Shown here piece by piece: positions 866 to 44,887 of a stretch of DNA of 60,111 nt. Position numbers and translations under genes: made by a program. The stretch lies in assembly GCA_046715355.1 (NCBI GenBank), contig JBKJZJ010000214.1:1-60111 (forward strand). The letters are read 5' to 3'. How positions within the stretch are numbered: position 1 is the first letter of the stretch; each line of letters starts with the position of its first letter. Origin of the DNA: Allosphingosinicella sp. GTDB lineage: Bacteria; Pseudomonadota; Alphaproteobacteria; Sphingomonadales; Sphingomonadaceae. Under the pieces are notes generated by a model. It worked only from the letters and a program-made list of their open reading frames with translations. It ran no database searches and was not told the origin of the DNA.

Positions 866-1441
866 GTGTGGGGCGACGATGAGGATTTGCGGGGGCATGA
901 CAGGGCTGGGGCATTGCCCGTGACGATTGCCGCGAGCGGCGGCGACGGCGCCGCGCCGCCGTTCGAGACCATCGTCGCTGATTACGGCCCGCTCATCTCG
1001 CGCATCGCCTCCTCCTACGAGGCCGATCCCAGCCTGCGCGAGGACCTCACCCAGCAGATCTTCCTGGCGGTCTGGCAGGCTTTGCCCTCCTGGCGCGCCG
1101 ACGCGTCGCTGAAGACCTTCATCGCCCGGGTGGCGCAGAACCGCTCGATCTCCTTCGTCACCAAGCAGGTTCGCCAGCCGCCGGTCGCCGAGCTTCCGGA
1201 GAAGCTGGAAGCCGAGGCGCCCAATCCCGAAGAGCATGCGATCGAATCGAATGAGCGTGAGATGCTAATGGAAGCGACCCGCAAGCTGCCTTTGCCGCAA
1301 CGGCAAGTCATCATCCTGGTTCTCGAAGGTTTTACTTACCCAGAGATTTCCGAAATGCTTGAGATCGCCCCCAATGCCCTGGCGCTCAGGCTGTCCCGTG
1401 CCAAAGCGGCACTCAAGTCGATGCTGGAGCGTGATGAATGA
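866..1441 (+). CDS. ECF-type RNA polymerase sigma-70 factor
   Basis: Region 2 EDLTQQIFLAVW...TFIARVAQN; region 4 LPLPQRQVIIL...EGFTYPEISEML. Confidence 0.93.
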   Translation: MWGDDEDLRGHDRAGALPVTIAASGGDGAAPPFETIVADYGPLISRIASSYEADPSLREDLTQQIFLAVWQALPSWRADASLKTFIARVAQNRSISFVTKQVRQPPVAELPEKLEAEAPNPEEHAIESNEREMLMEATRKLPLPQRQVIILVLEGFTYPEISEMLEIAPNALALRLSRAKAALKSMLERDE

Positions 1442-2055
1442 CCGACCTCGACCTTGACCGCCTCGGCGATGTCTGGCGCCAGCAGCCGGACCCGGCCGAG
1501 CTGGAGCGGCTGCAGCGCAGCGCGGCCGCGGTGAGCCGGCGCGCCCGGCGCTCGCGCGTCATCGACATGGTCGCGACGCTCGCGGTCGCGGCGGTCGTGA
1601 TCCTGCTCGTGCTGACCAATCCGAAGACCGAGACGTTCGTGATCGGCAGCGCGGCGATCCTCGTCCTGCTCGGCAGCAACATCCGCCTGCGCAAGCTCAG
1701 GCAGGTCGAATTGCGGAGCCTGACCGGGAGCACCGAGGACATGCTCGACCAGAGCATCGAGCGCATCGAAACCACCCTCAAGCACGACCGCCTGAGCCTC
1801 ATCGCCGGCGGTCCCTATCTGCTCATCGGCCTGGTGTTCGCGGCCTCCGCCGACAGTTCCGCCCTCGGCGACTTGTTCCCGACGCTGCAGGCGCTGAACC
1901 TGTCCCGCGCACTTTGGAGCGGGCTCGTCATTTTCGCGCTGGCGATCGCGGCCCTGTTCCTCGCCTTCAGGATGCGGCGGGGTCGCCGCGAGCTGGAGCG
2001 GCTGCGGACGATGCGCGAAGCCTATCGTCATGAGCATGAATCGACGACTCCGTGA
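1438..2055 (+). CDS. Putative membrane anti-sigma factor
   Basis: ATGA overlap with the sigma gene, LGDVWRQQ N-terminus, four hydrophobic segments. Confidence 0.75.
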   Translation: MTDLDLDRLGDVWRQQPDPAELERLQRSAAAVSRRARRSRVIDMVATLAVAAVVILLVLTNPKTETFVIGSAAILVLLGSNIRLRKLRQVELRSLTGSTEDMLDQSIERIETTLKHDRLSLIAGGPYLLIGLVFAASADSSALGDLFPTLQALNLSRALWSGLVIFALAIAALFLAFRMRRGRRELERLRTMREAYRHEHESTTP

Positions 2056-2162
2056 TTTGCGTTTTATTCTAGGTAAACGGAATCTGTTCGGCGGTTTAGC
2101 AAAGTTTCAACGCCTTTCCGCTACATGTCTCCCGTCGAAGCAAAATTAGGGAAGGCGAGACA

Positions 2163-2300
2163 ATGGACAAGATTCGGATGACGGTCGAGGAGCTCCCCGA
2201 GCTCGAGACCGAAGTCGCGGTTTCCGGCGCGGTCAAGCAGCAGGAGGTCGGGGGCTTCCTGTGCCTGTGCCTCGCGGCCGGCATCGCGCTGGGCCTTTAA
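2163..2300 (+). CDS. 45-aa putative RiPP precursor MDKIRMTVEELPELETEVAVSGAVKQQEVGGFLCLCLAAGIALGL
   Basis: Below the ORF-track size cutoff; purine-rich RBS agggaagg upstream; high-GC3 codon use; acidic leader, GG, hydrophobic CxC core; followed by a hairpin and two enzyme-like genes. Confidence 0.75.
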   Translation: MDKIRMTVEELPELETEVAVSGAVKQQEVGGFLCLCLAAGIALGL

Positions 2301-2319
2301 GCCAGTTCAACATGATCGC

Positions 2320-2362
2320 GGCCCGGCGCGCGAGACGGGTTGAAGCCCGCCGCCGCCGGGCC
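2320..2362 (+). terminator. GC-rich stem-loop after the precursor peptide gene
   Basis: ggcccggcg (2320-2328) pairs with cgccgggcc (2354-2362), with an inner cggg/cccg stem. Confidence 0.55.
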
Positions 2363-2391
2363 GGTTCGTTCCCGCGGCCGGTGGAACAATC

Positions 2392-3375
2392 ATGATCGTC
2401 GGTGAGGACCTCAAAGCCTGGCTCGCGGACCGCCCGCGCCAGCGCCGGACGCAGGCCGAGATCGACGCCTTCGGCCGCGACTGGGGCCTGAGCGCTGTGC
2501 ACCGGCGCTTCGACGAGGCCTTCTCGGCCATCGCCGCGCCGACCGCCGAGAAGGTCGCGGCCGCTGCTTCGGCACTGTTCGCCGACGATGGCTGGGTGGA
2601 AATCCTGGTCGAGAGCCTCGCCGCCAAGATGCGCGCCGACCCCTATTTCCATCCGCCCTTCCGGCCGTTGATGACGGACGTGCATAGCGGCCTGCTCGTT
2701 TACGAGCACGAAACCGTGTCGATCGCGATCGGCGTCAGCACCGCGGCGCAGCTCGCCGCCAAGAAGACGGCGCCGCGCCGCGGGCCGACCTCGGTCGGTT
2801 TCAACGGCCAGTATTGCGTGTTCAAGTTCGTCAAGGCGGGCGGCGCCCGTTTCTCGTTCTGGGAGGCGCCGCCGATCACCGCCGGCTTCACCGGCGCCGA
2901 AGCCGGGACCTGCGTGCGCACCGGCGAGCGCGACATCGATGACGGCGAGATCCTTGAGATCGACGGCCGCCGCCAATCCTATGTGATCGAGAAGCTGCGC
3001 GGCAACCTCTTCGTCCTGCAGGCCTCGATCGCGCTCGACCAGGCCCCGCTCGGCGTCGAATATGATTCGGCGAGCGGCGCATTCGTCGGCTGCAGCGCCG
3101 CCGACGACACCGCCTCGCGCATCCAGATGATCACCACGCTCCTCAGGAAGCTCGATTGCGACGCCGCTTTGCCGGCCATGGCCGAGCTGCTCGACCATCC
3201 GGACTTCTTCGTGCGCTGGCACGTCATGAAGGAGATGCTCGGGCTCGACGTCCAGCTGGCGCTGCCCCACCTCAGGCGAATGGCGGCGAGCGACCCGCAT
3301 CCCGATCCGCGCCGGGCCGCGCGCGCCGTGCTCGACCGGCTCGAAGCCCCCGCCGCCAAGCAGCGGGCCGCCTGA
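2392..3375 (+). CDS. Cupin-like protein with C-terminal HEAT repeats, no obvious His metal motif
   Basis: C-terminal LLDHPDFFVRWHVMKE and DPHPDPRRAARAVL HEAT-like repeats; beta-rich middle region. Confidence 0.7.
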   Translation: MIVGEDLKAWLADRPRQRRTQAEIDAFGRDWGLSAVHRRFDEAFSAIAAPTAEKVAAAASALFADDGWVEILVESLAAKMRADPYFHPPFRPLMTDVHSGLLVYEHETVSIAIGVSTAAQLAAKKTAPRRGPTSVGFNGQYCVFKFVKAGGARFSFWEAPPITAGFTGAEAGTCVRTGERDIDDGEILEIDGRRQSYVIEKLRGNLFVLQASIALDQAPLGVEYDSASGAFVGCSAADDTASRIQMITTLLRKLDCDAALPAMAELLDHPDFFVRWHVMKEMLGLDVQLALPHLRRMAASDPHPDPRRAARAVLDRLEAPAAKQRAA

Positions 3376-3376
3376 C

Positions 3377-4297
3377 ATGCCACGCATCATCCCCTGCCAG
3401 GTCGAGACCGCGATCGAGCTCGGCGAGCTCATCGAGGCGCTCAACGATCCGCGCTTCGATCCGCGCGACGAGGAGAGCTTCGTCGCCTTCGGCCCGCTCC
3501 TGAAGCAGCTCGCCAACAACCGCTCCTTCCTCGCCGACATCGCGCTTGCCGAGCTGAAGGACCGGTGTGGCCGGCAAAGCGCCGGCAATCGCTATTCGAG
3601 CCAGGTGATCATGCTGCACCGCGCCTCGGAGAAATACTTCATCCGCGCCAATTTCTGGCCCTCGCCCCGCGACAGCATCTTCAAGGCGAGCGGCACTTCG
3701 CCTTTCTTCTACCACGTGCCGCACGACCATAATTTCTCGTTCCTCACCGTCGGCTATCTCGGCCCCGGCTATTGGAGCGACTATTACGAATATGATTATA
3801 GCGGCGTCGTCGGCCTTCCGGGCGAGCAGGTCGACCTGCGCTTCGTCGAGAAGTCGCGGCTCGAGCCGGGCAAGGTGATGCTCTATCGCGCCCATAAGGA
3901 CGTGCACAACCAGCTCCCGGCCGACGAGCTCTCCATCTCGCTCAACATCATGGAGTCCTCGCCGAGCCTGCCCTTCCTCAGCCAGTATCGGTTCGACGTG
4001 GCGACCTGCACGATCGCGGGCATCCTCACCCGGACCGCGACCGAATCCCTGCTCGCGATCGCCGCCAATCATGGCGGCGGCAACGGCCGCGACCTGGTCG
4101 AGAGCGTCGCGGCGCGCCACCCCTGCGACCGCATCCAGTTCGCCGCGCTGCGCGAGCTCGCCGCCGCCGCGCCCGACCTCGACAGCGGCCTCGAGCTGCT
4201 CGCGCGCGGACGCGCCTCGCCCGACGCCTTCGTCGCGGGGATGAGCGCCCATGAAAGCGCGCGGATCGAGGCGTGCAGGGCGTGGATCGAACGTTGA
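3377..4297 (+). CDS. Cupin-fold (thiol dioxygenase-like) metalloenzyme with helical C-terminus
   Basis: RANFW...PHDHNFSFLTVGY...HKDVH gives an HxH...H metal triad; 1 nt from the upstream stop. Confidence 0.72.
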   Translation: MPRIIPCQVETAIELGELIEALNDPRFDPRDEESFVAFGPLLKQLANNRSFLADIALAELKDRCGRQSAGNRYSSQVIMLHRASEKYFIRANFWPSPRDSIFKASGTSPFFYHVPHDHNFSFLTVGYLGPGYWSDYYEYDYSGVVGLPGEQVDLRFVEKSRLEPGKVMLYRAHKDVHNQLPADELSISLNIMESSPSLPFLSQYRFDVATCTIAGILTRTATESLLAIAANHGGGNGRDLVESVAARHPCDRIQFAALRELAAAAPDLDSGLELLARGRASPDAFVAGMSAHESARIEACRAWIER

Positions 4298-20323: not shown

Positions 20324-20767
20324 ATGGCCGGGGTCAGCTATGAGAGCCTGCTGAAGAGCATCCGGGACGCTCCGGTCGCCTCGGCCCGGCCGGACGATCC
20401 GTCCCTCCAGCCCGCGCCGCCGCAGGGCCAGACCTTTGAGGAGATGTTCGGCACCCACGCAACGACCCAAGGCGACGGCGACGCGGTCGCCAGCGAGCCG
20501 GCGCCGCCGCTTTTCGATCTCCGGCACGCGCGGCTGGCGTCCGGATGGGGGGGCGTCGCGGGCTTGGTGGTGGGGGCGTTCGTGGGGGCGAAGGGGGGCA
20601 TGGGCTGGCTCGTCATCGGCGCCGCGACCGGCACGGTGCTCGGTTCGATCGTGGGCATCGCCGTCTTGAGCCTCTTCGCGGGCGCCGTCCAACGGCTCGG
20701 CGCGCTATGGGCCATGATCCTGGCGGCGATTGCCGTCGGCATTGGCGCCGCGGTGATGGGTCGATGA
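20324..20767 (+). CDS. Glycine-zipper membrane protein
   Basis: GGVAGLVVGAFVG...GAATGTVLGSIVG; start directly follows the upstream stop. Confidence 0.65.
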   Translation: MAGVSYESLLKSIRDAPVASARPDDPSLQPAPPQGQTFEEMFGTHATTQGDGDAVASEPAPPLFDLRHARLASGWGGVAGLVVGAFVGAKGGMGWLVIGAATGTVLGSIVGIAVLSLFAGAVQRLGALWAMILAAIAVGIGAAVMGR

Positions 20768-20779
20768 GGAGATGACCGG

Positions 20780-21967
20780 ATGAGCGGGGAAAAATGCGGC
20801 CAGTATCGCGTCAATCGCAACGCCGAGCGGGAAGCGAGACGCCTGCGCGAGGCCCAGGAAGCGGCCGCCGCCGCGCGCAAGCGGCTCGAGGCGGCGCTTG
20901 CGCGCGGGCCCACATTGGCGGCGGGGGAGCAACCGCCCAACGCGGCACCGGACGTCACGGCCGAGATGCTCGATGCCTATGTCGCTGCGGCCAATGCGTT
21001 CAGCGTGACGCTCGAGCACCGGATCGCCAATAGCGAGGCGCTGAAGCAACTCCGGTCGGAGTCGGGCGGAGGAGACGCCGGGACCTGGAGCGGCCCGGCG
21101 GCGGACGCGTCGCATTCGTCACAGGAAACGGCCGCCTCGCGGTCGCCGACCGGCACTCCGGCAGAGCGCGAGGCGCGGCACGCACTCGTTTCGCGCCTTC
21201 TCGGCCGGCTTAGGGAGGCGACGGCCGAGGAATCCGAGCGGGTCATGACTCTGGCGAAGGCGCTGCTGGACTGCGACGACACCGTGGTCGCGGACAGGGT
21301 GGAGAAAGAACTGCGCCATGCGCTTCAGGAAGCCAATGCCGCGGGGGATGCGAGGCGGGCCGACGCCGCACGCGCCGAAGCCCTGCTCAGCCGGATCAGG
21401 GGGCTTGAAGGCGAAGCAATCGCCGACCTGCGCGGACGGCTGGAGGAAAGCGCCGCTGGCGGTCGTGCGCTACCGGCGAAAATCGAGGCCGCCGTGGAAG
21501 GCGCACGTGATGAGGAGATAGCGCGGTCGGACCGGGACTATGTCGCGCGCGTCTTCCGGGAGGAACTCGAAAATTGCGACTATCTCGTCGCCGACGATAG
21601 CGTCGAGACCGCGTTCGCTCGGGGGGGCCAGATCGTCGCTGCGGACGAACGCAACCCAGGCTATGCAGTCGAGATCAACGCCGACCCGGAGACCAGGAAA
21701 TTTGAGATGAGGGTGGTTAGGCTGGACGATCCGGGTCCCTGGTCGCCGTTGCGCGATCAGCGCGACAGGGGGGTGGAGGATCGTTTTTGCGAAAGCCAGC
21801 AGCGGGTTCGCGATCGAATGCGCGAGGCCGGCATCGAAAGCTGGCTGACCGAGCACAAGCGCGCCGGTGAGGTCGCCGTGGCAACGCTCGTGCCGGCGGC
21901 CGGGCGCAAGGCGGACGTCGCCCCCAGGAAGAAGCAGCCGCGCGCCGCGCCGCTTCCGAGATCGTGA
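20780..21967 (+). CDS. Coiled-coil protein with C-terminal alpha/beta domain
   Basis: RBS gaggag; MSGEKC N-terminus; overlaps the AAA gene start. Confidence 0.8.
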   Translation: MSGEKCGQYRVNRNAEREARRLREAQEAAAAARKRLEAALARGPTLAAGEQPPNAAPDVTAEMLDAYVAAANAFSVTLEHRIANSEALKQLRSESGGGDAGTWSGPAADASHSSQETAASRSPTGTPAEREARHALVSRLLGRLREATAEESERVMTLAKALLDCDDTVVADRVEKELRHALQEANAAGDARRADAARAEALLSRIRGLEGEAIADLRGRLEESAAGGRALPAKIEAAVEGARDEEIARSDRDYVARVFREELENCDYLVADDSVETAFARGGQIVAADERNPGYAVEINADPETRKFEMRVVRLDDPGPWSPLRDQRDRGVEDRFCESQQRVRDRMREAGIESWLTEHKRAGEVAVATLVPAAGRKADVAPRKKQPRAAPLPRS

Positions 21968-23841
21968 TGGATGTCGGCGCCTCTCCCGATCCAGCTCCGG
22001 CGTCGCGCTGGCCGCGCTGGCTCGAGGAGATCGACCAGACCTTGTCGATCTGCCCGCAATTCTTGCTCTATGGAAACATCCGCGACAGGTACCTCATTCC
22101 GATCGATGACACGCAATTGGCCCAAGCCTCGCTGGTCGACGCGCTGTGGGCGCGGCTTCGGTCGCGCGGCTACGAGTTTCTGCTGCTGTACGATCCCACG
22201 CTCGGGCTTTCGATTCATCCCTCCAATGCTGCCGCGGCGGCGGCGCCGACGCTGTCTCTTGCCGCGGTGACTGCACGGGAGCGTTCGCCAGGCGGGGAGG
22301 GCGGCCACGATGTCGCGCCGGGCCAGATCGCCCGCCTGATCGAGGCAGTCTACAAGTCGGGCCGATGCGGCCTGGTCCTCCAGAACGCGTCCCGGTTGCT
22401 GCAGTCGGCGGCCGAGCTTTCGGCCGACAACCTGAACCTGTTTGCCGCGTGCGCGCAATATGCCCAGGCCGCCGTGCCGCGACAGGTCGCGCCTCCCCAG
22501 AAACAGCCCTTGTTCAATCCCGTCTTCTGGCTGGTGGACGCGATGCGCGACCTGCCGCCCTGGCTCGCCGCGGCTGGCGAACGGAGCCGCTCGATCTCGG
22601 TGGCGCATCCCGACACCGAGGCGCGCCAAGTCGCTGCGTTGCAGCTTGCGCGCTTGGTGGAGCCCAGGCTGGACGAACAGGAAGCCGCGCAGGCGGCAGA
22701 CCAGTTCGCCGCACGCACGGAAGGGCTGACCCTGAAGGAAATGGAGGCGGTCGCCTGCCTCGCGCGCGATCAGGGGGTGCCGATGGCGGGGATCGCCGAC
22801 GCGATCCGCTGCTACAAGGTCGGAGTAACCGACGATCCCTGGAGCAAGCCGTTTCTGCAGACCAAAATCGCCAATGGCGAAGAGGAGATTCGAAAGGACG
22901 TAAAGGGCCAGGAGGTCGCGGTCCGGCAGACTCTCGATATCCTCATCCGCTCGGTGATGGGACTGCACGGCGCCCAGGCATCGAGTTCGTCGAACCGTCC
23001 TCGCGGCGTGCTGTTCTTCGCCGGGCCGACCGGGGTCGGCAAGACCGAGCTGGCCAAAGCGGTCAGCAAGCTCGTCTTCGGAGACGTGGATGCTTGCCTG
23101 CGCTTCGACATGAGCGAATTCTCGTCCGAGCATAGCGACGCGCGCCTGATCGGCGCGCCGCCGGGCTATATCGGCTATGACGCCGGCGGTGAATTGGTGA
23201 ACGCGATCCGGCAGCGCCCGTTCAGCGTTGTCCTGTTCGACGAGATAGAGAAGGCGCATCCGCGCATTCTCGACAAGTTTCTCCAGATCCTGGAGGACGG
23301 CCGCCTGACCGACGGCCGCGGCGACACCGTCTATTTCTCCGAAGCGGTGCTGATCTTCACCTCGAACCTCGGCATCGTCGGCCTCGGCGACGACGAGGCC
23401 GCGCGCGCCCCGCTCCACCCCGACGTGCATTCCTATGAACAGGTCGAAAGCCGGGTGCGGCAAGGCATCGAACACCATTTCCGGAACGTGCTCGGGCGCC
23501 CCGAAATCCTCAATCGCCTCGGCGAGAACATTGTCGTGTTCGATTTCATCCGCGCTCCCATCCCCGAGGAGATTTTCGACAAAGCGGTGCACAACGTATT
23601 CGATCGAGTCGCGCGAACGCGCCAGCTCAGGCTGAGCTTCGCACCGGGCGTGCGTGAAAAGCTGCTCGGCGTCTGCACGGAAAGCCTCGACCATGGCGGC
23701 CGCGGCATCGGCAACAAGCTCGAGCAGGCACTGGTGAACCCGCTCGCGCGCGCTTTGTTCGCGCAACGGCCGCGCGGCCCCGACGTTCTCATCGCGGACT
23801 TCGTTCACGAAGGCGGCAAATATTCGGTGCGGCTGGCATGA
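21964..23841 (+). CDS. AAA+ ATPase with ClpA/ClpB D2-type module and degenerate N-terminal AAA-like region
   Basis: FAGPTGVGKTELAK, RFDMSEF, LIGAPPGYIGY, LFDEIEKAHP, LQILEDGRLTD. Confidence 0.92.
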   Translation: MMDVGASPDPAPASRWPRWLEEIDQTLSICPQFLLYGNIRDRYLIPIDDTQLAQASLVDALWARLRSRGYEFLLLYDPTLGLSIHPSNAAAAAAPTLSLAAVTARERSPGGEGGHDVAPGQIARLIEAVYKSGRCGLVLQNASRLLQSAAELSADNLNLFAACAQYAQAAVPRQVAPPQKQPLFNPVFWLVDAMRDLPPWLAAAGERSRSISVAHPDTEARQVAALQLARLVEPRLDEQEAAQAADQFAARTEGLTLKEMEAVACLARDQGVPMAGIADAIRCYKVGVTDDPWSKPFLQTKIANGEEEIRKDVKGQEVAVRQTLDILIRSVMGLHGAQASSSSNRPRGVLFFAGPTGVGKTELAKAVSKLVFGDVDACLRFDMSEFSSEHSDARLIGAPPGYIGYDAGGELVNAIRQRPFSVVLFDEIEKAHPRILDKFLQILEDGRLTDGRGDTVYFSEAVLIFTSNLGIVGLGDDEAARAPLHPDVHSYEQVESRVRQGIEHHFRNVLGRPEILNRLGENIVVFDFIRAPIPEEIFDKAVHNVFDRVARTRQLRLSFAPGVREKLLGVCTESLDHGGRGIGNKLEQALVNPLARALFAQRPRGPDVLIADFVHEGGKYSVRLA

Positions 23842-24488
23842 ATATCTCGATCAACCGCCTTCACTATCCGGTGACTGCGCTCGGGCCGGGACGTCGCATC
23901 GGCATCTGGGTGCAGGGCTGCTCGATCGGTTGCCGCGGCTGCGCGTCACGCGACACCTGGCCGGCTTCCGCGGAAACGCGGGTCGAAATCTCGGCTATCG
24001 TGCAATGGTGCCTCGCCAAAGGCGGGGAGGCCGATGGCGTCACCATCAGCGGCGGAGAGCCGTTCGAACAGCCAGAGGCGCTGGAGCAGCTCCTGCGCGC
24101 GCTCGATGCGTGGCGCCGCGACGAACAGCGCGACATCGACTTCCTTTGCTATAGCGGGTTGCCGGCGGCGAGGCTCCGTCGCGACTTCCCGTCCCTGCTG
24201 GACCAGCTCGACGCCATCGTCCCCGAGCCATTCGTCGAGCGCCTGCCCACCGACGCAGCCTGGCGGGGTTCGGCGAATCAGCCGCTCCTTCCCCTCTCTC
24301 CCTTGGGGCGTCGGCTTTACGGGGCCGACGGCGCCCTGGCTGGTGCGGCGGAAGGCCGGATGCAGGTCGCCGTCGCCGAGGGGCAGGTTTGGCTGATCGG
24401 CATCCCCAGGCGCGGCGATCTCGATCGCCTGCTGGAAGCCGGCGAACGGCGCGGCGTGACAATGGAGGCGGCATCGTGGCGCGCGTGA
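23838..24488 (+). CDS. NrdG-like radical SAM protein
   Basis: GPGRRIGIWVQGCSIGCRGC (CxxxCxxC), GVTISGGEPFEQ, WRGSANQ. Confidence 0.92.
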   Translation: MNISINRLHYPVTALGPGRRIGIWVQGCSIGCRGCASRDTWPASAETRVEISAIVQWCLAKGGEADGVTISGGEPFEQPEALEQLLRALDAWRRDEQRDIDFLCYSGLPAARLRRDFPSLLDQLDAIVPEPFVERLPTDAAWRGSANQPLLPLSPLGRRLYGADGALAGAAEGRMQVAVAEGQVWLIGIPRRGDLDRLLEAGERRGVTMEAASWRA

Positions 24489-24931
24489 AAATCTGTCCGG
24501 TCTGCAAGCACCACAATGGGGAGCTGGAGGATCAATGTCAGAACTGCCCGGCCTTTCTGATTGGCGTCATTGCCAGGGAACCATCCGAAATCGGCCTCGA
24601 GGAGACGATCACGCCGACCGAAGCGCCGACCGAGCCACCCGTCCTGGTTCTCATATTCCCTTGGGGTGAGGAGACGATCGGGGAGGAGACGCTGCTTGGC
24701 GTCGACAATCCCCGCTTTGGCGCGCGCATCGACGGCGCCGCCAATGGCGACCGCGTGTCCGGCGCCCATGCAATGGTTTGGTGCCGCGACAACCGGTTCT
24801 TCATCCGCCACCTCAGCACGACCAACCTCACATTTCTGGACGACGAGGAAGTCGAGGAGGAAGCGGAGCTGCGCGACGGCCAGAGGCTCTCTTTGTCCCG
24901 CCATTTTCATCTCACCGTGCGGATCCGATAG
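24476..24931 (+). CDS. Zinc-ribbon plus FHA domain protein
   Basis: GTG start after ggaggcgg; CPVC-x9-CQNC; VSGAHA...HLSTTNLT. Confidence 0.82.
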   Translation: MARVKICPVCKHHNGELEDQCQNCPAFLIGVIAREPSEIGLEETITPTEAPTEPPVLVLIFPWGEETIGEETLLGVDNPRFGARIDGAANGDRVSGAHAMVWCRDNRFFIRHLSTTNLTFLDDEEVEEEAELRDGQRLSLSRHFHLTVRIR

Positions 24932-24935
24932 CGCC

Positions 24936-25715
24936 ATGGTCTTGCGCGCCTCGATCACCGCCTTCACGCATCCCGGGCTGGACCGCGGCCAGAACGAGGA
25001 CGCGGTCGCAGTCGGCGCCTGGGTTGGCGAGGGAACGCTTTGGCGGCCCTGGCGCGCACGGCTCATCGTCGACCGGCCGCAGCTCTGCGTCATCGCGGAC
25101 GGGATGGGCGGTCATGCCGGCGGCGCGGTCGCCAGCGCCGCCGTTGTCCGCCATCTCGCGGAGGCAAGCGGACGGATGTTGAACGCCGCGGCCGTCGATC
25201 GCGTCATCGATGGCGCCGATCGCCTGCTTCACGACCGGGCCGGGCGCGACCCGGCGCTGGCCGGCATGGGCACGACGGTCGTCGGCCTGGTGCTGGCGCC
25301 TGAACGGCTGATCTGGTTCAATGTAGGCGACAGCCGGCTCTATCGGTATCGCGAAGGCTTCCTGCGCCAGCTCAGCATCGACGACGTGCCCGGTGGCGGG
25401 TTCCAGCAGCGCGAGGGGCCGCGGCAATCGCATCTCCTGTCGGCGTCGCTGGGCGGCCGCGAGCGCGGGCGGCCCGATCCCCATATCGGAGTCGAGGAGC
25501 CGCCGCCCGCCGTCTCGCGCTGGCTGCTGTGCAGCGACGGGGTCACCGACATGATGAGCCCCGCCGAGATGGAAGAGGCGATGGCTGCGGACGATCTTGA
25601 CGCCTGGACGGGCTTGTTTGCAGGCGTGATGGAGGCCGGCGCCACCGACAATTTCTCGATCCTGCTCGTCACGCTCGATGAAATCCCGGCGGGGGAGGCA
25701 CGGAATGGCACGTAG
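24936..25715 (+). CDS. PP2C-family Ser/Thr phosphatase
   Basis: RGQNED, IADGMGGHAGG, NVGDSRLY, LCSDG and DN motifs. Confidence 0.93.
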   Translation: MVLRASITAFTHPGLDRGQNEDAVAVGAWVGEGTLWRPWRARLIVDRPQLCVIADGMGGHAGGAVASAAVVRHLAEASGRMLNAAAVDRVIDGADRLLHDRAGRDPALAGMGTTVVGLVLAPERLIWFNVGDSRLYRYREGFLRQLSIDDVPGGGFQQREGPRQSHLLSASLGGRERGRPDPHIGVEEPPPAVSRWLLCSDGVTDMMSPAEMEEAMAADDLDAWTGLFAGVMEAGATDNFSILLVTLDEIPAGEARNGT

Positions 25716-27537
25716 GACACGCCGCGATGACGAGCCGGAAGAGCCGGCTGCCGGTGGCGGCAGGCGCAGGACCCGGCGCGACGAGGAGGATGGCTGGACC
25801 GCCAGCCCCGGCGGCGACGCCGACGATGACGACCCGATGTTCAAATGGCCGGAAGACCTCCGGCGCAACTGGCAACTTATCCGACGGCTGAAGTCGGGCG
25901 GTGAATCCGCATTGTTCCTCGTGCGAGGCCTGAACCCCGACAATCAGGGCGAGAGGGTCATCAAGATCTACGATCTGCGCATAAGGCCCTCGGCGGCGGT
26001 GGTCGACCGCGTCGCGCGCTTCGATCCGGCGCACGTGGTGCGGATGTACGAGCATTTTGCGCTCGGGCCGCGATGGATCGAAATTCTCGAATATCTCGAG
26101 CATGGATCGCTGGAAGACCTGGCGCTGTCGGAGGCGCTGCCGCACAGCCCGGAGCGGATCAGGGCCGTGATCGAGGAGCTTCACGGCGCCTTGGCTCACA
26201 TCCACGCGGCCGAGATCGTCCATCGCGACATCAAGCCGGGGAACATCCTCATCCGCGGCCTGGAGCCGCTCGACCTGGTTCTCACCGACTTTGGCATCGC
26301 CTCCTATCTCGATGGCTTCAGCGAGCACGTCACCAGTGAGAACAGGACCGAGGCCTATGCCTCGCCGGAGGCCCAGGACGGTACGGTCCAGCCGCTCAGC
26401 GATTGGTGGTCGGTCGGAATCTTGCTGGTCGAGATGCTCACCGGCCGCCACCCGTTCGCCGCGGCGCAGGAAGGGCGGCGGTTCATTTCGGGCGTCCAGA
26501 TCAGGGAACGGCTGGTGAACCAGGATGTCGAACAGCTGGTGGCCGGCGTTCCGGAGGCCTTCCTGCTGCTTTGTCGCGGCCTGCTCCGGCGGCACACACG
26601 CAACCGTTGGGGCGCGAAACAGGTTCGCCAGTGGCTCGACGGAGGCCCCGATCCGAACGTCGAAGCCGAAGCCCCGCCCGGCCGCCCGGCCTTCGTGTTC
26701 GCCGGCACCGGGCGCGAGCATTATGCGCTCCGGGACGTCGCTCGCGCCCTGTCCGAACATTGGTCCCAGGGCGTGACGAGCTACGGTCGCGGCGAGCTTC
26801 AGGCCTGGCTCTACCAGGCCTGCGACGGGGCCATGCTGGCGTCCGTCCGCCAGATCGACGAGGAATCGCGACGCGGGGACTATCCGTTCAACGATGCGCT
26901 GTATCGCACCATCATCGCAATCGATCCCGCGATCACTCCAAGCTATCGCGGCTACACGCTGAATGAAACGGGGCTGACCCGGCTGTCCCGGGAGGCGCTC
27001 GAGGGCGGCGCGCAGGCGCTGGACGTCTTGCGCGAGATATTCGAGTTCGGCTGCATGTCCACTTACTCCGCCATGCGCGGAGCGGCCTGGCACATACAAA
27101 CGGAGGAGCTCTGGCAGAGCCAGGTTCGAGGCTATGTGCGGCTCGCCCCGCTTGTCCCAGTCGATCACCGCGGCATTCTTGAGCGGACCCTGCCGATGGC
27201 GGTCGCGGCCGGGTTGCGGGCCTCGTTGGCGGGCGAGGCCGGCTGGGCGCGGATGCTCCGCGACCAGACGCTGGCCGGCAGGCTGGTCGGACGGTACACG
27301 CCGCCATGGTACGAGCAGCTGCAATCGAGCATCCCGGTGCTGTCGAGCGCGGCTTTGGTCGGCCTTCGGGCGCTTCAGCCAGCGGCGAGGGAGGAAGCGA
27401 GCCTCGAGGAGCAAAGGCGGCGCGATGCCCGAGCCGTGGCGCTCGGGCGCGCGATGACAGCCTCGCGGGTGATCGGCATGCTCGCCATCGCCGCCTTGGC
27501 CGTGCTCGGCGTCGCGGCATTGCTCGGCTATGTTTGA
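25705..27537 (+). CDS. Hanks-type Ser/Thr kinase with C-terminal membrane anchor
   Basis: SGGES loop, VIKIY, HRDIKPGN, DFG, YASPE, DWWSVG; terminal TM. Confidence 0.95.
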   Translation: MARRTRRDDEPEEPAAGGGRRRTRRDEEDGWTASPGGDADDDDPMFKWPEDLRRNWQLIRRLKSGGESALFLVRGLNPDNQGERVIKIYDLRIRPSAAVVDRVARFDPAHVVRMYEHFALGPRWIEILEYLEHGSLEDLALSEALPHSPERIRAVIEELHGALAHIHAAEIVHRDIKPGNILIRGLEPLDLVLTDFGIASYLDGFSEHVTSENRTEAYASPEAQDGTVQPLSDWWSVGILLVEMLTGRHPFAAAQEGRRFISGVQIRERLVNQDVEQLVAGVPEAFLLLCRGLLRRHTRNRWGAKQVRQWLDGGPDPNVEAEAPPGRPAFVFAGTGREHYALRDVARALSEHWSQGVTSYGRGELQAWLYQACDGAMLASVRQIDEESRRGDYPFNDALYRTIIAIDPAITPSYRGYTLNETGLTRLSREALEGGAQALDVLREIFEFGCMSTYSAMRGAAWHIQTEELWQSQVRGYVRLAPLVPVDHRGILERTLPMAVAAGLRASLAGEAGWARMLRDQTLAGRLVGRYTPPWYEQLQSSIPVLSSAALVGLRALQPAAREEASLEEQRRRDARAVALGRAMTASRVIGMLAIAALAVLGVAALLGYV

Positions 27538-28351: not shown

Positions 28352-31300
28352 GTGACGACAGTGGCTGGCAGTTTCTACGAACAACCGATCCTCAATTCTC
28401 CATATAAGATTCCGACTCTGCACCACCCTCTGGATGATCACGGCCAGCCGATCGATGAGCCGCCGGTTCAGGGGCGCCGTCCCTCGAAGTTCGTCGTCCC
28501 GGTCCCGAAGTCGCGAAAAAAGGCGTCCGCCGCTCAGGGCCTGCTGGACCTGGAGAGCTACACCGAAAACGCCCTGATCAACGAGATCCGATCCTATGTC
28601 GGCGCCTGGCGCGACATCCCCAATGCCGCGGACTGGGGAGTGACGCCGCCCACCGCCCGCCTCCTCGATTATTGGCGCAACCACGATTTCTCAAACGTCC
28701 GCCCCTTCTTTTGCCAGGTTGAGGCGGTCGAAACGATCATCTGGCTCACCGAGGTGGCGCCGAAGCGCGCCGCGACGAAGCAGCTGATCGATCAACTCCA
28801 GCAGGCGAATAAGGAGGCCAATCCCGAGTTGTTCCGGCTGGCCCTGAAGATGGCGACCGGGTCGGGCAAGACGACGGTCATGGCGATGCTGATTGCCTGG
28901 CAGACGGTGAATGCGGTCAGGAAGCCGGATTCCGGCCAGTTCAGCCGCGCCTTCCTCATCATCACGCCGGGCATCACTATCAAGGATCGCCTCAGGGTGC
29001 TGATGCCGGAAGACCCCGATAATTATTACGTAACGCGCGAGCTCGTTCCGCCGGAAGTGATCGGCGAAGTGCGCAAGGCCGAAATCGTCATCACCAATTA
29101 CCACGCCTTCCAACACCGGGAGACGCTCCAGGCGCCTAAGGTCGCCAAGGGCCTCCTCCAAGGCAACGACCCGGAGCCTATCAAAACGACGGAGAGTGAC
29201 GGCGAGATGCTCCAGCGCGCATGCGGGAAGCTGCTCAGCTTCCGCAACGTCAACGTCATCAGCGACGAGGCCCATCACTGCTATCGCCACAAGATCGGCG
29301 GCGATGAAGAGGCGATCGCGGCGGAGGAGCGCGAGGAGGCGAAGGAAAATGAAGAGGCTGCCCGGCTCTGGATCAGCGGCATCGAAGCGCTGAAGCGCAA
29401 AGCCGGCGTCCGGGGCGTCTACGATTTGTCAGCGACGCCCTTCTTCCTGCGCGGCTCCGGCTATCCGGAAGGCTATCTGTTCCCCTGGGTGGTTTCAGAC
29501 TTCAGCCTGATGGACGCGATCGAATGCGGGATCGTGAAGCTCCCCCGCGTCCCGGTCGCGGACAATCTCCCGAACCGAGAGGATCTGGTCTATCGCCACC
29601 TCTGGAAGCATGTCGGCAAGGACATGCCGAAGACCGCTGCGGCGGCCGGCAAGCTCAGCCCGTTCGATCTCCCCAACGAGCTGCAGACCGCGCTCTACGC
29701 CCTCTACAGCCATTACGAGAAGACCTTCGAGCTATGGCGCTCGGAAGGGATCGGCGTGCCGCCGGTATTCATCGTCGTCTGCCAGAACACCGCGATCTCG
29801 CGCCTCATCTTCGAATGGATCTCCGGCTTCGAACGCGAGCCCGGCGAGAAAGGTGATGAGCGCGCGGCCTTCCACACCGGCCACCTCGAGCTGTTCCGCA
29901 ATTATGACGAGCATGGCGGCCGGCTGCCAAGGCCGCGGACACTCCTGATCGACTCTCGTCAGATCGAGGCCGGCGACGCGCTCGATGCGAGGTTCCGCGA
30001 GATGGCGGGCCCGGAGATCGAGCAGTTCAAGCGCGAGCTGGCGCAGCGGGGCGGCGCCGGCAGCGTCGGCCAGATGATCAGCGACGAAGAATTGCTTCGC
30101 GAGGTCATGAACACAGTCGGCCGCGAGGGCCGGCTCGGCGAGCAGGTCCGCTGCGTCGTCTCGGTATCCATGCTGACCGAGGGCTGGGACGCGAACACCG
30201 TCACCCACATTCTCGGCGTGCGCGCGTTCGGCACGCAGCTGCTGTGCGAGCAGGTGGTCGGCCGCGGCCTCCGCCGCCAGTCCTACGAGCTCAACGAGGA
30301 TGGCCTGTTCGACGTCGAATATGCCGACGTCATGGGCATTCCGTTCGACTTCACCGGCAAGCCGCAGGTGGCGCGGCCGACCAAACCGAAGCCTGTGACC
30401 CGAGTTCACGCGATCCGCGAGCGCTCCGAGCTTGAGATCGCCTTCCCGCGCGTCACCGGCTATCGCCGCGATCTGCCCGAGGAGCGGCTGACGGCCGAGT
30501 TCAGCAAAGATTCGACGCTGGAGATCACGCCGGAAGACATCGGCCCCACCAAGGTCTTCATGGAGGGCATCGTCGGCGAGAGCGTGGTGATCACGCCGGA
30601 GGTACTCGAAGGCCTGCGCCCATCGACGATCAGCTTCAACCTTGCCAAGCACCTCCTCTACACCTGCTTCAAGGATGAGGACGGCGTACCTAAGCAGCAT
30701 CTCTTCCCGCAAATCCAGCGCATCGCCCGCCGCTGGATCGACGAAGGCTATCTGGTCACCAAGGGGGTGCCGGCCGGCGCGATCCTCTATCTCGACCAGC
30801 TCTCCCGCGCGGCGGAGCGGATCGACATGGCCTGCAACCGCGGCGCCGGCGAGCGTGCGCAGATCAAGGCGATCCTCGATCCCTACAATCCGCGAGGCTC
30901 GACCCGCCACGTCAACTTCATCACCTCCAAGGCGTGTCAGGCGACCGGCGCGACCCCGCCCAAGAGCCAAATCAGCCACGTCGTGCTCGACAGCGGCTGG
31001 GAGGGGCAGATGGCGAACGTGTTCGAAACCCATCCGCGCGTGATCGCTTATGCAAAGAATCAGGGCATGGGTTTCGAAGTGCCCTATCAGGACGGCGGCC
31101 TCTCGCGCCGCTACGCGCCGGACTTTATCGTACGCCTAGACGACGGCGGCGCCGAGCCGCTCAACCTCGTCCTCGAGGTCAAAGGCTTCCGCGGCGAGAA
31201 CGCCAAGGCCAAGGCCGAGACGATGCGCGAGTTCTGGGTGAAGGGCGTCAACGCGCTCGGCAGCTTCGGCCGCTGGGATTTCGCGGAGTTCAGCGACTGG

Positions 31301-31357
31301 GCGCTGATGGACGAGGATTTCGCGAAGCTGGTCGAGAGGTTGGTGGGAGAGAAATGA
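28352..31357 (+). CDS. res: Type III restriction enzyme Res subunit (SF2 helicase plus nuclease)
   Basis: KMATGSGKT, DEAHH, SATP, MLTEGWD, QVVGRGLRR, C-terminal PDFIV...LEVKG. Confidence 0.93.
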   Translation: MTTVAGSFYEQPILNSPYKIPTLHHPLDDHGQPIDEPPVQGRRPSKFVVPVPKSRKKASAAQGLLDLESYTENALINEIRSYVGAWRDIPNAADWGVTPPTARLLDYWRNHDFSNVRPFFCQVEAVETIIWLTEVAPKRAATKQLIDQLQQANKEANPELFRLALKMATGSGKTTVMAMLIAWQTVNAVRKPDSGQFSRAFLIITPGITIKDRLRVLMPEDPDNYYVTRELVPPEVIGEVRKAEIVITNYHAFQHRETLQAPKVAKGLLQGNDPEPIKTTESDGEMLQRACGKLLSFRNVNVISDEAHHCYRHKIGGDEEAIAAEEREEAKENEEAARLWISGIEALKRKAGVRGVYDLSATPFFLRGSGYPEGYLFPWVVSDFSLMDAIECGIVKLPRVPVADNLPNREDLVYRHLWKHVGKDMPKTAAAAGKLSPFDLPNELQTALYALYSHYEKTFELWRSEGIGVPPVFIVVCQNTAISRLIFEWISGFEREPGEKGDERAAFHTGHLELFRNYDEHGGRLPRPRTLLIDSRQIEAGDALDARFREMAGPEIEQFKRELAQRGGAGSVGQMISDEELLREVMNTVGREGRLGEQVRCVVSVSMLTEGWDANTVTHILGVRAFGTQLLCEQVVGRGLRRQSYELNEDGLFDVEYADVMGIPFDFTGKPQVARPTKPKPVTRVHAIRERSELEIAFPRVTGYRRDLPEERLTAEFSKDSTLEITPEDIGPTKVFMEGIVGESVVITPEVLEGLRPSTISFNLAKHLLYTCFKDEDGVPKQHLFPQIQRIARRWIDEGYLVTKGVPAGAILYLDQLSRAAERIDMACNRGAGERAQIKAILDPYNPRGSTRHVNFITSKACQATGATPPKSQISHVVLDSGWEGQMANVFETHPRVIAYAKNQGMGFEVPYQDGGLSRRYAPDFIVRLDDGGAEPLNLVLEVKGFRGENAKAKAETMREFWVKGVNALGSFGRWDFAEFSDWALMDEDFAKLVERLVGEK

Positions 31358-32271
31358 TGGCGAAGCGGGCGAGATATTCTGCCACCGACGAAAACCTGCT
31401 CAACCACGCGCTGGAACCGGCGATGCGATGGTTGATTGCGGTTGCCTTGGACGGGTCGACGATCACCTACGGCGACGTGAAGGAGAAACTGGAGACGGAG
31501 GAGAGCTTCTCGACGGTCTTCGCGACGCGGATCGGATTGGTGGCGGGCGAACTGATGCACAAGATCCAGTCGGTCGAGCCAAACGCGCCCTTGATCAACG
31601 TTCTGGTCGTCAATCAGGAGGATCGCCAGCCGAGCAAAGGCGCGGGATCGTTCATGGCAAACCGGTTTGGCAACGAACGGCTCCGCGCGAAATCGGCCAA
31701 GAAGCGCTATCCCAAGCTGTGGAGGCGTAGCTTCGAGCGCGCCGCCGGGGAGGCCTACAAATATAACGAGAAGGACTGGGCGGATCTGTATCGGCGCGTT
31801 TTCAAGCGCCGTCTGACCATCGACAAGATCGAGCACGAGCGGAAGGAACGGCAGCAAGGTCGTGAAAAGGACGGGATCCAATATGGCCGCGGCGGGGGTG
31901 AGGGTCCGTTCCACAAGGCCCTGAGGCTCTGGGTCAAGGACAATCCGCAAGCGGTGCGCCGCGGCTTCGCCAGCGCGCGCGCCGAAACCGAGGTCGATCT
32001 GGATTCCGGCGACCGCATTGACGCCGTCTATTATTGCGCCGACCGCACGGTCGTCCTTGAGGTAAAATCACGCATTTCCAACGAGGTGGATTTGAAGCGC
32101 GGCGTATATCAGTGCATCAAATATCGCGCCGTCAAGAAGGCCATGGACGTTCGGGACGATGCCGTCGTCGAAGCCTATCTCGTGACCGAGGATGACATTC
32201 CGGGCGAGATTGCCGCCCTATTGAAACGCCACAAGATCAGGCATTACCAGGCCGCCCAAGTGAGAAAATAA
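31354..32271 (+). CDS. Putative PD-(D/E)xK nuclease with N-terminal HTH-like domain
   Basis: ITYGDV N-terminus; E-x6-DRIDAV...VLEVKS...RGVYQCIKY. Confidence 0.72.
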   Translation: MMAKRARYSATDENLLNHALEPAMRWLIAVALDGSTITYGDVKEKLETEESFSTVFATRIGLVAGELMHKIQSVEPNAPLINVLVVNQEDRQPSKGAGSFMANRFGNERLRAKSAKKRYPKLWRRSFERAAGEAYKYNEKDWADLYRRVFKRRLTIDKIEHERKERQQGREKDGIQYGRGGGEGPFHKALRLWVKDNPQAVRRGFASARAETEVDLDSGDRIDAVYYCADRTVVLEVKSRISNEVDLKRGVYQCIKYRAVKKAMDVRDDAVVEAYLVTEDDIPGEIAALLKRHKIRHYQAAQVRK

Positions 32272-32274
32272 CGA

Positions 32275-35217: not shown

Positions 35218-35228
35218 GGAATACGAGA

Positions 35229-36140
35229 TTGTTCAATCTTATCATAAGCGGAGCAGCGGACGCCTGGGAGGGAGAACCTTACCAGCTCCCCAGAAGCCGC
35301 ATATTTGAATATACAGATGAAGCGATCTCGGCGCGATTCAAAGAACTTACAGCCGAGCAACTTGCACATCTCTATGAGTTGCCAACTCTGTTCGCCTATG
35401 AACGCGGCAGGGAACGGCCGGCTCGCGTGGGCAATGTCAGAAGAGTCCGGATCAGGCAGCGTGAAGTCCAGATAGAATATCAATTCCGCGACGATCTGCC
35501 AGAGATCCCGCATGAGACGATCGAGGCTCTAAAGTGGCAGCTCGATATTGAGGATTTTGAGTTCTACCGGACGCACTGGGCGGTCAAGGATGTCGATCTC
35601 CTCGAGGCCTTGGGCGAGGGCGGGGTTGATGTCGGGCAGGTGGCACGTGAGCCCGAAAATGAGGAGGAGGTGGCCGATCTTCCTCGGGCTGTCGCGATAC
35701 CCGTGCAGCCAAAGGTCTTCCGGGTTCCGGATGATCCGATCGATCCCACTCTGGTAGCCGTCATGGGTCCCTTCGACGCCAGTTTCGATGCGATGTTTGC
35801 AGCCGTGGAGCGAGCAGCAGCGGATGTTGGATTGCACAGTCTCAATGCGCGGCAGGTCTGGGATGCAGAGGAGCTGATCCAGGACATATTTGCGCTAATC
35901 TATCGCTCCAGAATGGTTGTCTGCGATTTCTCAGGCCAGAACGCGAATGTGTTCTACGAAGCGGGTATCGCGCATACGATGGGCAAGGTCGTTATTCCAA
36001 TTGCACAAGCGATAGGGGACTTGCCCTTCGATCTTCGCCATCATCGCGCGCTGATCTATCGAAATGATCCCGCAGGCCTTGAGGAGCTTGTCCGTATCGT
36101 CGGCAGGCGGATGCGGAAAGTGGCCGAAGCGCCTCTATGA
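35229..36140 (+). CDS. Protein with C-terminal nucleoside 2-deoxyribosyltransferase/TIR-like domain
   Basis: VMGPF...VCDFSGQNANVFYEAGIAH...LPFDLRH. Confidence 0.78.
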   Translation: MFNLIISGAADAWEGEPYQLPRSRIFEYTDEAISARFKELTAEQLAHLYELPTLFAYERGRERPARVGNVRRVRIRQREVQIEYQFRDDLPEIPHETIEALKWQLDIEDFEFYRTHWAVKDVDLLEALGEGGVDVGQVAREPENEEEVADLPRAVAIPVQPKVFRVPDDPIDPTLVAVMGPFDASFDAMFAAVERAAADVGLHSLNARQVWDAEELIQDIFALIYRSRMVVCDFSGQNANVFYEAGIAHTMGKVVIPIAQAIGDLPFDLRHHRALIYRNDPAGLEELVRIVGRRMRKVAEAPL

Positions 36141-38878: not shown

Positions 38879-40306
38879 CTAGCTCGAAGCGCCCGAGCGC
38901 GAGCTGTTGGCTAACGGATTCCCGCCCATCGCCTTGAAAAGGTCAATGGCAGCTTCAAGCCGCTCCTGAAGCGCCACGGCCCTTGCATCCTCCGCTTCGA
39001 CAAGCCGTTGCTCAGCATCGAACAGGCGCTGCAGATCCGCTTCACCTTCAATATATTGCAGCCGGGCAAGCCGAGCTGTCAGTCGCGCCTCCTCCAGGAC
39101 CTCGATTAGCAAAATCTCTCTGGCTCGCGATCGGTCGACAGCCGTCAGTGCGTTTTCAACTTCGGCAAGCGAGGTCAGCAACACTTGCCGATAAAGTTCG
39201 ACACTCTCCACCTGGCGTGCCGCCGAGAGCTCGAGATTCGCCCGCAGCCGCCCGCGGTTGAAGATCGGCGCAAGCAGGTCGGCGCCGATCGCAAAGGTGC
39301 TGCTCAACGGCCCGGACAGGCTGGCCGCCTGCCCGAGCGCGCTCGCGTTCAGCCGGATGCGCGGAAAGAAAGCGGCGCGTGCTTGTTGGACGTCGCCGCC
39401 CGCGGCGTCGATCCGCGCTTCGGCGGCGCGAATGTCTGGCCGACGTATGATGAGCTCGCTCGGCTGGAGTGTCGCGAGGGTCGGCGGCGTCAGGGAGTCG
39501 AGCGAGGCCGGGGATAGCTGGAAGCGCGGCGCTTCCTCGCCGACGAGGATCGCCAGAGCGGTTCGCGTCCGGTCGAGCGACTGATCGAGGCGCAGCCTCT
39601 CGGTCTGCAGCTGGCGCACCTGGATCGTCTGCAGGCCGAGATCCACGCGCGTCGCGTCGCCGGCGTTCAGCCGGGCACGAATGATCCGCTCAAGCTCGAG
39701 CGCTTGTTCGACGTTCCGGTCCAGGAGGGCGATCCGCGCCGCCAGCGTGGCGCGCTGGACGTAGACGCGCGCGACGTCGGACTGGACGACGAGCAAGGTG
39801 GCGTCGCGGTCGAACTCGGCGGCACGCAGCCGATGCCGGGCCGCGCGGCGCTCGGCGCGGCCGGCTCCGAACAGATCGATGTCGAATGAAATATCTATCC
39901 CGCCGAAGGCATCGCTGAAGTCGAATGGATCGCCGGTGCGCTGGGTTCGCGTGCCGCTGAGGCCGGCGGAGCTGGTGACGACGGGAAGCATGGTGCCGCG
40001 CGCGGCACCAAAGAGGGCACGGGCCTGGCGGATACGCGCCTGGGTGATGCCGATGTCGGTATTGGCGGTCGACGCGCGCGCGAGCAGGCCTTCGAGCTCG
40101 GCCGAGCCGAGCGCCGCTCCGAGATTGGGGGCGCGTGATGCGGAAACCAGGTCGGGCGCGGCCGACGTCACTCCCTCCGCGCGGCTCCATTGGGTCGACA
40201 GTAATTCGGGCGCGACCTCCAGTCGGGCGTGCGGAACGCAGCCGGCCGCGACCAGCGGCACGAGGAAGCGCATGGCAGCGCGGCGGCTTTCGATCATCTT
40301 GCCCAT
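38879..40306 (-). CDS. Outer membrane factor lipoprotein (NodT/OprM family)
   Basis: Lipobox AAGC, FDIDLFG, RRPDIRAAE, APIFNRG. Confidence 0.93.
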   Translation of the reverse strand: MGKMIESRRAAMRFLVPLVAAGCVPHARLEVAPELLSTQWSRAEGVTSAAPDLVSASRAPNLGAALGSAELEGLLARASTANTDIGITQARIRQARALFGAARGTMLPVVTSSAGLSGTRTQRTGDPFDFSDAFGGIDISFDIDLFGAGRAERRAARHRLRAAEFDRDATLLVVQSDVARVYVQRATLAARIALLDRNVEQALELERIIRARLNAGDATRVDLGLQTIQVRQLQTERLRLDQSLDRTRTALAILVGEEAPRFQLSPASLDSLTPPTLATLQPSELIIRRPDIRAAEARIDAAGGDVQQARAAFFPRIRLNASALGQAASLSGPLSSTFAIGADLLAPIFNRGRLRANLELSAARQVESVELYRQVLLTSLAEVENALTAVDRSRAREILLIEVLEEARLTARLARLQYIEGEADLQRLFDAEQRLVEAEDARAVALQERLEAAIDLFKAMGGNPLANSSRSGASS

Positions 40307-40455
40307 CGGCCCCGAACTAGCGGCGTTCGGTTAATTTTGGCTAAGCCATCCCGCCCGGCCCGAATCGCCGCACCCAATGGTTCGGATGCGATTAACCGGC
40401 TTTTTATGTCTCGCCGCTACCTGCCGATGCTCACTGATCGAACGTGTTGCGGGGC

Positions 40456-43829: not shown

Positions 43830-43833
43830 GAGA

Positions 43834-44799: not shown

Positions 44800-44887
44800 T
44801 TCACCGAAAAGCGCGGGCCCCGCGCAGGCTTGCGCGGAGCCGCTACCGGCGACCCCGCGCATAACCCAGAGCAATGGTGGATCGGCC

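Follow-up and report, generated by a model that had tools for sequence, protein, structure and literature searches.

The 60,111-nucleotide stretch analysed here, referred to as the window, comprises positions 1-60,111 on the forward strand of contig JBKJZJ010000214.1 of Allosphingosinicella sp. (assembly GCA_046715355.1). Positions 2163-4297 hold a unit of three short genes encoding a 45-residue peptide and two proteins of the cupin fold, here called A and B. The features of the unit and of the DNA upstream of it are as follows.

866-1441, forward strand: extracytoplasmic function (ECF) sigma factor (Pfam Sigma70_r2 and r4_2, TIGR02937).
1438-2055, forward strand: membrane protein, likely an anti-sigma factor judging by its position and hydrophobic segments; no Pfam or NCBIfam family above cut-off.
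2096-2110, forward strand: conserved upstream element TTAGCAAAGT(T/C)TCAA, shared by close relatives and reading TTAGCAAAGTTTCAA at this locus.
2148-2155, forward strand: ribosome-binding site AGGGAAGG, recognised by its sequence and kept in relatives.
2163-2300, forward strand: open reading frame (ORF) of the 45-residue peptide, with a leader-like segment (residues 1-23), a linker (24-33) and a hydrophobic tail from Cys34.
2319-2363, forward strand: G+C-rich RNA hairpin after the peptide stop, without a U-run (z −3.0).
2392-3375, forward strand: protein A, a cupin-HEAT protein without metal ligands and the predicted leader-binding subunit (HEAT_2 match, structural model).
3377-4297, forward strand: protein B, a three-His cupin-HEAT protein and predicted Fe(II)/O2 enzyme (structural model, fold matches, conserved triad).

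An earlier note on this DNA had singled out the peptide ORF and its acidic leader. Both stood up, as the N-terminal half is acidic, a ribosome-binding site precedes the ORF and homologues were found. The ratio of nonsynonymous to synonymous polymorphism (pN/pS) was 0.33 for the whole peptide, 0.25 for leader plus linker and 0.58 from Cys34 on, computed over 159 pairs of 70 to under 100% identity that are non-independent and uncorrected. Purifying selection of this strength indicates that the ORF is translated, and the values, together with the column counts given below, display a conserved leader followed by a variable core. The hairpin that had been noticed after the peptide is a general feature of the family. 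None of 200 shuffled versions of 2319-2363 was equally stable, and z fell below −2 in the segment 3' of the peptide in 53/73 relatives versus 6/73 control stretches inside A (block shuffle, 40 per stretch). Scanning of the window locus for sigma-70 promoters and terminators gave no match, and the hairpin is not terminator-like. In operons for peptides made by ribosomes and modified after translation (RiPPs), a hairpin after the precursor gene fits a precursor made in excess; by that logic an excess of peptide over the enzymes is suggested here. The ORF of protein B begins one base past the stop of protein A.

Relatives of protein B numbered 2603 among 7998 scored candidates, were either unnamed or called 'transposase', and reduced to 912 representatives at 50% identity. 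The 'transposase' label was rejected, B having no such domain or fold. The protein was present in 52 of 150 genomes sampled from the window's family and in 12 of 401 sampled across the phylum, the source genome included, while 400 genomes of another class yielded two full-length matches. The phage search gave no match; the plasmid search returned two matches and the metagenome scan one short locus. In the 80 best loci of 257 found, the gene immediately upstream of B is A-like in 79, and the remaining locus is truncated. These 80 loci, the window and a second copy constitute 82 close stretches, in which a pattern search identified 74 peptides in 73 stretches and a profile search identified a peptide upstream in 80, the two misses being contig ends. 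In a broader, less biased set the peptide was present at 58 of 61 loci. Rows removed before counting were duplicates (L081, L084, L087, L089-L092, L097, L099 and L107) and one HEAT-only row (L098), and L154, a near twin of L144, was omitted from some tallies. The peptide, A and B are real genes conserved together. The upstream small-ORF scan of collected homologues that the note had proposed thereby gave the result it anticipated, and its view of a precursor-like peptide, hairpin, three-His cupin and non-catalytic partner as one unit holds across the family.

The second complete peptide-A-B copy in the source genome (C38:9948-12126; L093, L159) encodes a one-Cys peptide; it lacks the sigma pair and adjoins a TPR gene and a superoxide dismutase gene. 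At one further locus (L153, G860:C3) the match to B is split between two reading frames, so that the copy may be broken or mis-assembled. In two genomes the module adjoins yidC, which encodes a membrane insertase (L145 and L150; at L145 it lies between the yidC-like gene and a YihA/EngB-type GTPase gene). Cultured carriers of the unit include Sphingosinicella terrae (L014, L051) and Sphingomonas gei (L038). A search for longer proteins gave eight matches, seven of which join A and B, most of them apparently frameshifted or internally deleted. P0285, represented by a single record, looks like a clean A-B fusion.

Structural models of A and B had mean predicted local distance difference test (pLDDT) values of 90.8 and 89.1. 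The best fold match of B was mercaptosuccinate dioxygenase (Z 13.7, root mean square deviation (rmsd) 3.6, 170 residues aligned), followed by 3-mercaptopropionate dioxygenase (Z 13.1), cysteine dioxygenase (CDO, 12.5), plant cysteine oxidase (PCO, 11.1) and 2-aminoethanethiol dioxygenase (ADO, 10.8). Other cupins scored 9.1 or less, and Foldseek agreed on thiol dioxygenases. The triad H116-x-H118...H177, which the note had likened to that of thiol dioxygenases, was complete in 149/149 rows and is in register with that of five bacterial CDO_I-family proteins from 7 loci (hhalign 72%, E 3e-5). Searches of Pfam and NCBIfam gave no family for B, including PF05995 (CDO_I); a sequence search of solved structures returned HEAT-repeat matches only, and the atlas searches led only to clusters without a name or labelled 'transposase'. 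Thiol dioxygenases carry an outer-sphere Ser-His-Tyr motif. In B the corresponding S-x-H-x-Y reads S188-x-N190-x-M192 in a low-probability profile alignment, with position 192 variable (M, L or V). With the His and Tyr of the motif replaced, B falls outside the thiol dioxygenases on that feature; it would probably work as a three-His cupin oxygenase.

Protein A also matched the thiol dioxygenase group in fold (Z 11.1, rmsd 3.4, 148 aligned), with no conserved His in its cupin barrel. Pfam HEAT_2 was recognised at residues 237-314, and the best-kept residues lie in this HEAT part (W276 in 115/115 rows, R275 in 113/115). The earlier description of A as lacking the triad and ending in HEAT repeats was therefore accurate, except that the repeats are not peculiar to A: both proteins end in HEAT-like repeats. 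With wide profiles A and B aligned as paralogs over 253 columns (hhalign 96%, E 4e-9). Narrow profiles gave a weak result (10%), and no match emerged when the two proteins were compared by direct BLAST. By these profile comparisons protein A is a metal-less paralog of B.

The three-chain structure prediction that had been suggested as a check was run with B, A and the peptide each entered as an alignment. The complex scored 0.90 versus 0.01 for the best of three controls, one of which replaced A; the mark applied to such scores is attained by 116 of the 157 solved pairs and by 2 of the 215 mismatched ones, counts that apply only approximately to a three-chain job. Runs agreed in at least 71% of contacts, with a peptide pLDDT of 62-65. 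In the model, peptide residues 3-9 and 11-28 touch the HEAT part of A at 272-288 and 305-313, including W276, as well as A 232-239, and the same residues touch the rim of B at 74-76 and 98-109. The prediction supports binding of the leader by A in an orientation that would point the remaining peptide at B.

The 127 peptides in the comparison, which omits approximately 15 found by profile search only, span 38-62 residues and share a common plan: a leader of 22-23 residues with G-[SA] at its end, then a linker that varies, then a tail of hydrophobic, beta-branched residues that keeps hydrophobicity more than residue identity. P12 was kept in 118 of them, L14 in 120 and G22 in 119, and T16 and V18 are also conserved. 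The peptide matched no Pfam or NCBIfam family, and NCBIfam leader families gave no match for 14 peptides or for the window peptide. The earlier note proposed a heterodimer of A and B that oxidises the CxC core or cross-links it, with VGG as the end of the leader, and this copy does contain both VGG and FLCLCLAAGIALGL. As family features neither held. VGG is found in 65/127 peptides and in 5/53 of the broader set. CxC is confined to this copy (1/127 peptides overall, 1/74 close peptides), and the second Cys is absent from its four closest relatives. The sequence alignment places the end of the conserved leader motif at Gly22-Ala/Ser23 rather than at VGG, and the hydrophobic residues expected at −4 and −7 of VGG are absent. 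With these counts the CxC version has almost no probability left.

We consider it probable that peptide, A and B constitute an undescribed RiPP-type oxidase that acts at the start of the hydrophobic tail, the peptide being a substrate rather than a tether or a regulator. Protein A would clamp the leader on its HEAT repeats, as the model predicts, and hand the remaining peptide to B. There, iron held by the three histidines would serve, with O2, to oxidise the start of the tail. The likeliest reaction would be oxidation at carbon instead of a CxC cross-link, either hydroxylation or desaturation of Val/Ile-type side chains, or oxidation at the backbone C-alpha, possibly cutting the chain. In the clade of the window Cys34 sits at the presumed point of oxidation, where it could be oxidised itself or could ligate the iron.

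A narrower possibility is that B is a clade-specific peptide thiol oxidase which converts Cys34 to a sulfinate or a sulfur cross-link, with other chemistry in Cys-free clades; this reading overlaps the preferred one as a special case. It accords with the best folds being thiol dioxygenases, among them the peptide-cysteine enzymes PCO and ADO, and with the retention of Cys34 in 72/74 close peptides amid variable neighbours. The close relatives have this single Cys, which is conserved in this clade only. Broader relatives are mostly Cys-free, with tails such as DDRIVVIMVYIYE, GDxVF, or Ile/Val runs led by DP or NP. When 123 loci were scored for a core Cys, two-peptide loci being excluded, 23 putative pocket positions of B were near-identical between the 78 loci with and the 45 without it, and the columns that best separate the two groups lie mostly outside the listed pocket positions. 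The Cys state changed at least three times on a 78-row tree, and Val replaces Cys in the near kin L049 and L060. At L094, on an Alteromonas stellipolaris plasmid, one enzyme pair stands beside one Cys and one Cys-free peptide. The same pocket with and without a core Cys and the loss of the His-Tyr pair argue against Cys-specific chemistry. Cysteine chemistry, the note's proposal, was not upheld as the reaction of the family, and the version restricted to this clade appears improbable.

The peptide could instead be a structural subunit whose leader binds A and whose tail anchors A and B at the inner membrane or has a regulatory effect on them, in which case B would oxidise a lipid or small molecule. 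Conservation of hydrophobicity over residue identity is consistent with such a role, as is the 17-residue nonpolar run in the tail of the window peptide. In the Cys clade 54/80 tails reach a 19-residue hydropathy of at least 1.6 and are of membrane length. The nonpolar runs of 47 Cys-free peptides have a median of 10 residues and reach 15 in one, too short to span a membrane. Genes of the 4HBT acyl-thioesterase type, counted in favour of this reading, neighbour 28 of 146 loci. Most of the 146 loci have no protease or exporter beside the module, and only the leader was confidently placed in the complex model, both also in keeping with a tether. The hairpin, by suggesting excess peptide, speaks against it, and so do loci that have two different peptides per enzyme pair or peptide exporters. 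Transporters adjoin approximately 7 of the 146 (L037, L038, L069, L094, L125, L126 and L152), and these few look like full clusters, a point in favour of the substrate reading. At L126 a C39-peptidase ABC transporter and HlyD are encoded divergently, approximately 290 bases from the peptide. The two peptides of L094 lie between MacAB-type and ABC-2 transporters. At L037, L038 and L069 a second pair is accompanied by two peptides and an ABC transporter, and L152 and L125 have efflux genes nearby. L151, also counted among the cluster-like loci, has an adjacent JmjC gene. On this evidence a tether or regulatory subunit is unlikely, though still a serious competitor to the substrate role that we favour.

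Several observations weigh against an oxidase that acts on the tail. Residues 29-45 of the peptide, with VGG and both Cys, were not confidently placed in the complex model. No core residue is common to all peptides, so none stands out as the target, and the near-invariance of Cys34 in close peptides makes a role for sulfur possible in this clade, where the tails are mostly of membrane length. Loci L127 and L147 and the Vibrio plasmid locus L095 yielded no peptide, and the only candidate at L151 is on the opposite strand. The close loci are kin, so that their counts are not independent. The scarcity of proteases and exporters extends to the window, where the type I secretion genes after nhaA include an ABC protein without a C39 domain, and to the genome, whose only C39 transporter is 37 kb off with double-glycine precursors of its own.

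That transporter belongs to a separate peptide cluster of the window (38879-48027) with genes for TolC, HlyD and the C39-peptidase ABC transporter (41685-43829), a 326-residue protein without a Pfam match (43819-44799) and a 2OG-Fe(II) oxygenase (45331-46062). The minus-strand ORFs 44888-45061 and 47845-48027 have canonical double-glycine leaders, followed by a basic Gly/Ser/Arg-rich core in the former and an Asn/Gly-rich core in the latter. The double-glycine consensus is a G-[GAS] site with hydrophobic residues at −4, −7 and −12. Compared with these two ORFs the peptide of the unit fails the spacing: VGG has Glu at −4 and Lys at −7, and G22-A23 fits at −4 only. It resembles double-glycine leader peptides in its acidic leader ending in G-[AS], and the relative L126 adjoins a C39 transporter; no such transporter lies at the window locus.

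The sole recurring neighbours of the unit in the 146 loci are the sigma factor gene (53 loci) and the anti-sigma-like gene (55 loci), all in the close clade. The pair was found in 0/33 of those broader loci (L125-L157) with enough upstream DNA; flanks of L082-L124 are too short to judge its presence. In the broader set CATTAC-N6-TTAA with at most one mismatch preceded 26 of 49 peptide genes but occurred in none of 286 upstream regions taken as controls; with other spacers the counts were 3, 1 and 0. Sites with at most two mismatches lay 61-115 bases before the start. A review describes this sequence as the site of Caulobacter UzcR, a Zn/Cu/U-responsive regulator of envelope genes (PMC8963506). 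The comparison is post hoc, the pattern having been noticed before it was set against the consensus, and its loci are related by descent. In each of 3/3 genomes the exact motif has a single occurrence, at the peptide gene; a wider regulon was not seen, one-mismatch matches numbering 32 and 18 versus 62 and 65 for the reversed control. Close loci mostly lack the motif (0/51 and 2/22), and the window locus, with four mismatches to the consensus, gave no match. The element at 2096-2110 is the single genomic site at up to two mismatches and occupies the position that CATTAC-N6-TTAA has in relatives. Among loci of the second-paralog (C38) type, 11 of 22 have a TAACCAT half-site upstream, versus 0/286 controls. 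CtrA-type control was discarded, as TTAA-N7-TTAA with at most one mismatch was not enriched (0/27, 3/51, 6/22 and 5/20 versus 27/286).

At 10 loci (L049, L080, L086, L088, L114, L120, L136, L142, L149 and L157) the gene immediately downstream of B, on the same strand, encodes an OmpR-type (Trans_reg_C) regulator, a candidate binder of the upstream motif. At several of these loci the motif takes the palindromic form TTACA-N4-TGTAA. The complex might itself be a signalling device that responds to oxygen, metal or envelope stress, passes the signal to the ECF sigma/anti-sigma pair or the OmpR-type regulator, and releases no product. The sigma and anti-sigma-like genes upstream in 53/146 loci, the OmpR-type genes, the UzcR-like motif and the fusion of one B to TPR-S/cyclase domains (P0139, a single record) would suit such a device. 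Against it, the regulators vary by clade, and most broader loci have the three-gene core without them; regulators beside an operon more simply control that operon. We regard a sensor as quite improbable beside the oxidase reading. Genes for a Crp-type regulator, TPR-S, a pNTSase1-like protein and a TIR-domain protein stand in a row at window positions 10663-16223, which suggests a nucleotide-signalling or defence module.

Among known systems the closest in fold are the thiol dioxygenases (CDO, 3-mercaptopropionate and mercaptosuccinate dioxygenases, PCO/ADO and ergothioneine dioxygenase), which B resembles in its cupin fold (Z 13.7-10.5) and in a three-His site in register with bacterial CDO_I members. 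It differs from them in having Asn190 and a variable aliphatic residue in place of the motif His and Tyr, and in its added HEAT repeats, dead-paralog partner, peptide gene and lack of a PF05995 match. For CDO itself the triad is reported as His86/88/140, with Tyr157 (PMC10989515). Systems of oxidative enzymes that depend on multinuclear non-heme iron (MNIO, DUF692) with partner proteins, such as bufferins, likewise combine a precursor, an iron enzyme and a partner in one operon. An ECF sigma factor and its anti-sigma factor are reported to govern the bufferin loci, which respond to metal stress (10.1101/2024.03.18.585515). B differs from these enzymes as a mononuclear cupin and A from their DUF2063 or RiPP recognition element (RRE)-like partners as a HEAT-bearing enzyme paralog; the precursor here has no Sec signal and is often Cys-free. 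No DUF692 or DUF2063/RRE-type Pfam match was found among the proteins of the unit. Other cupins occur in RiPP pathways, in keeping with the oxidase reading: two reports describe hydroxylation of unactivated Ile and Orn side chains by TcaO (thiocupinamide) and PbsQ (biphenomycin-like peptides) (10.64898/2026.01.07.698260, PMC12257519). These are JmjC-related or PF08007 tailoring enzymes of another cupin type in larger clusters, whereas B matches neither family and is the sole enzyme of its unit.

A literature search of mainly open-access text, without supplements, found no account of the A-B pair, and no curated family was found, in agreement with the note, which named no characterised pathway of this kind. 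The unit is, as far as searched, undescribed, and probably a variant of RiPP-type systems. A more specific proposal, which we put forward only tentatively, is that of a new RiPP class built by a single enzyme type that no peptide pathway is known to contain, in which an iron enzyme of the thiol dioxygenase fold and its inactive twin, with a HEAT leader module, oxidise or oxidatively cut Val/Ile-rich tails whatever their sequence; the product would be membrane-active and arise without a protease, control would be by metal or envelope stress, and approximately one third of sampled Sphingomonadaceae-family genomes would encode it. If the oxidase reading is true, the unit would represent a new enzyme architecture for ribosomal peptides, an enzyme with a pseudo-enzyme twin and a HEAT leader clamp, with a thiol-dioxygenase fold acting on substrates without thiols and probably new chemistry in ribosomal peptide biosynthesis. 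It would also give a function to a large family labelled 'transposase' or hypothetical, and with only three short genes the unit is directly testable.

Elsewhere in the window, positions 1-235 contain by eye a minus-strand tRNA-like sequence, ahead of which its end and flank are partly repeated in tandem. A gene cluster at 20324-27537 encodes an AAA ATPase, 4Fe-4S and FHA proteins, a PP2C phosphatase and a Ser/Thr kinase, and is followed at 28361-38179 by type III restriction-modification genes and a UvrD-like helicase gene.

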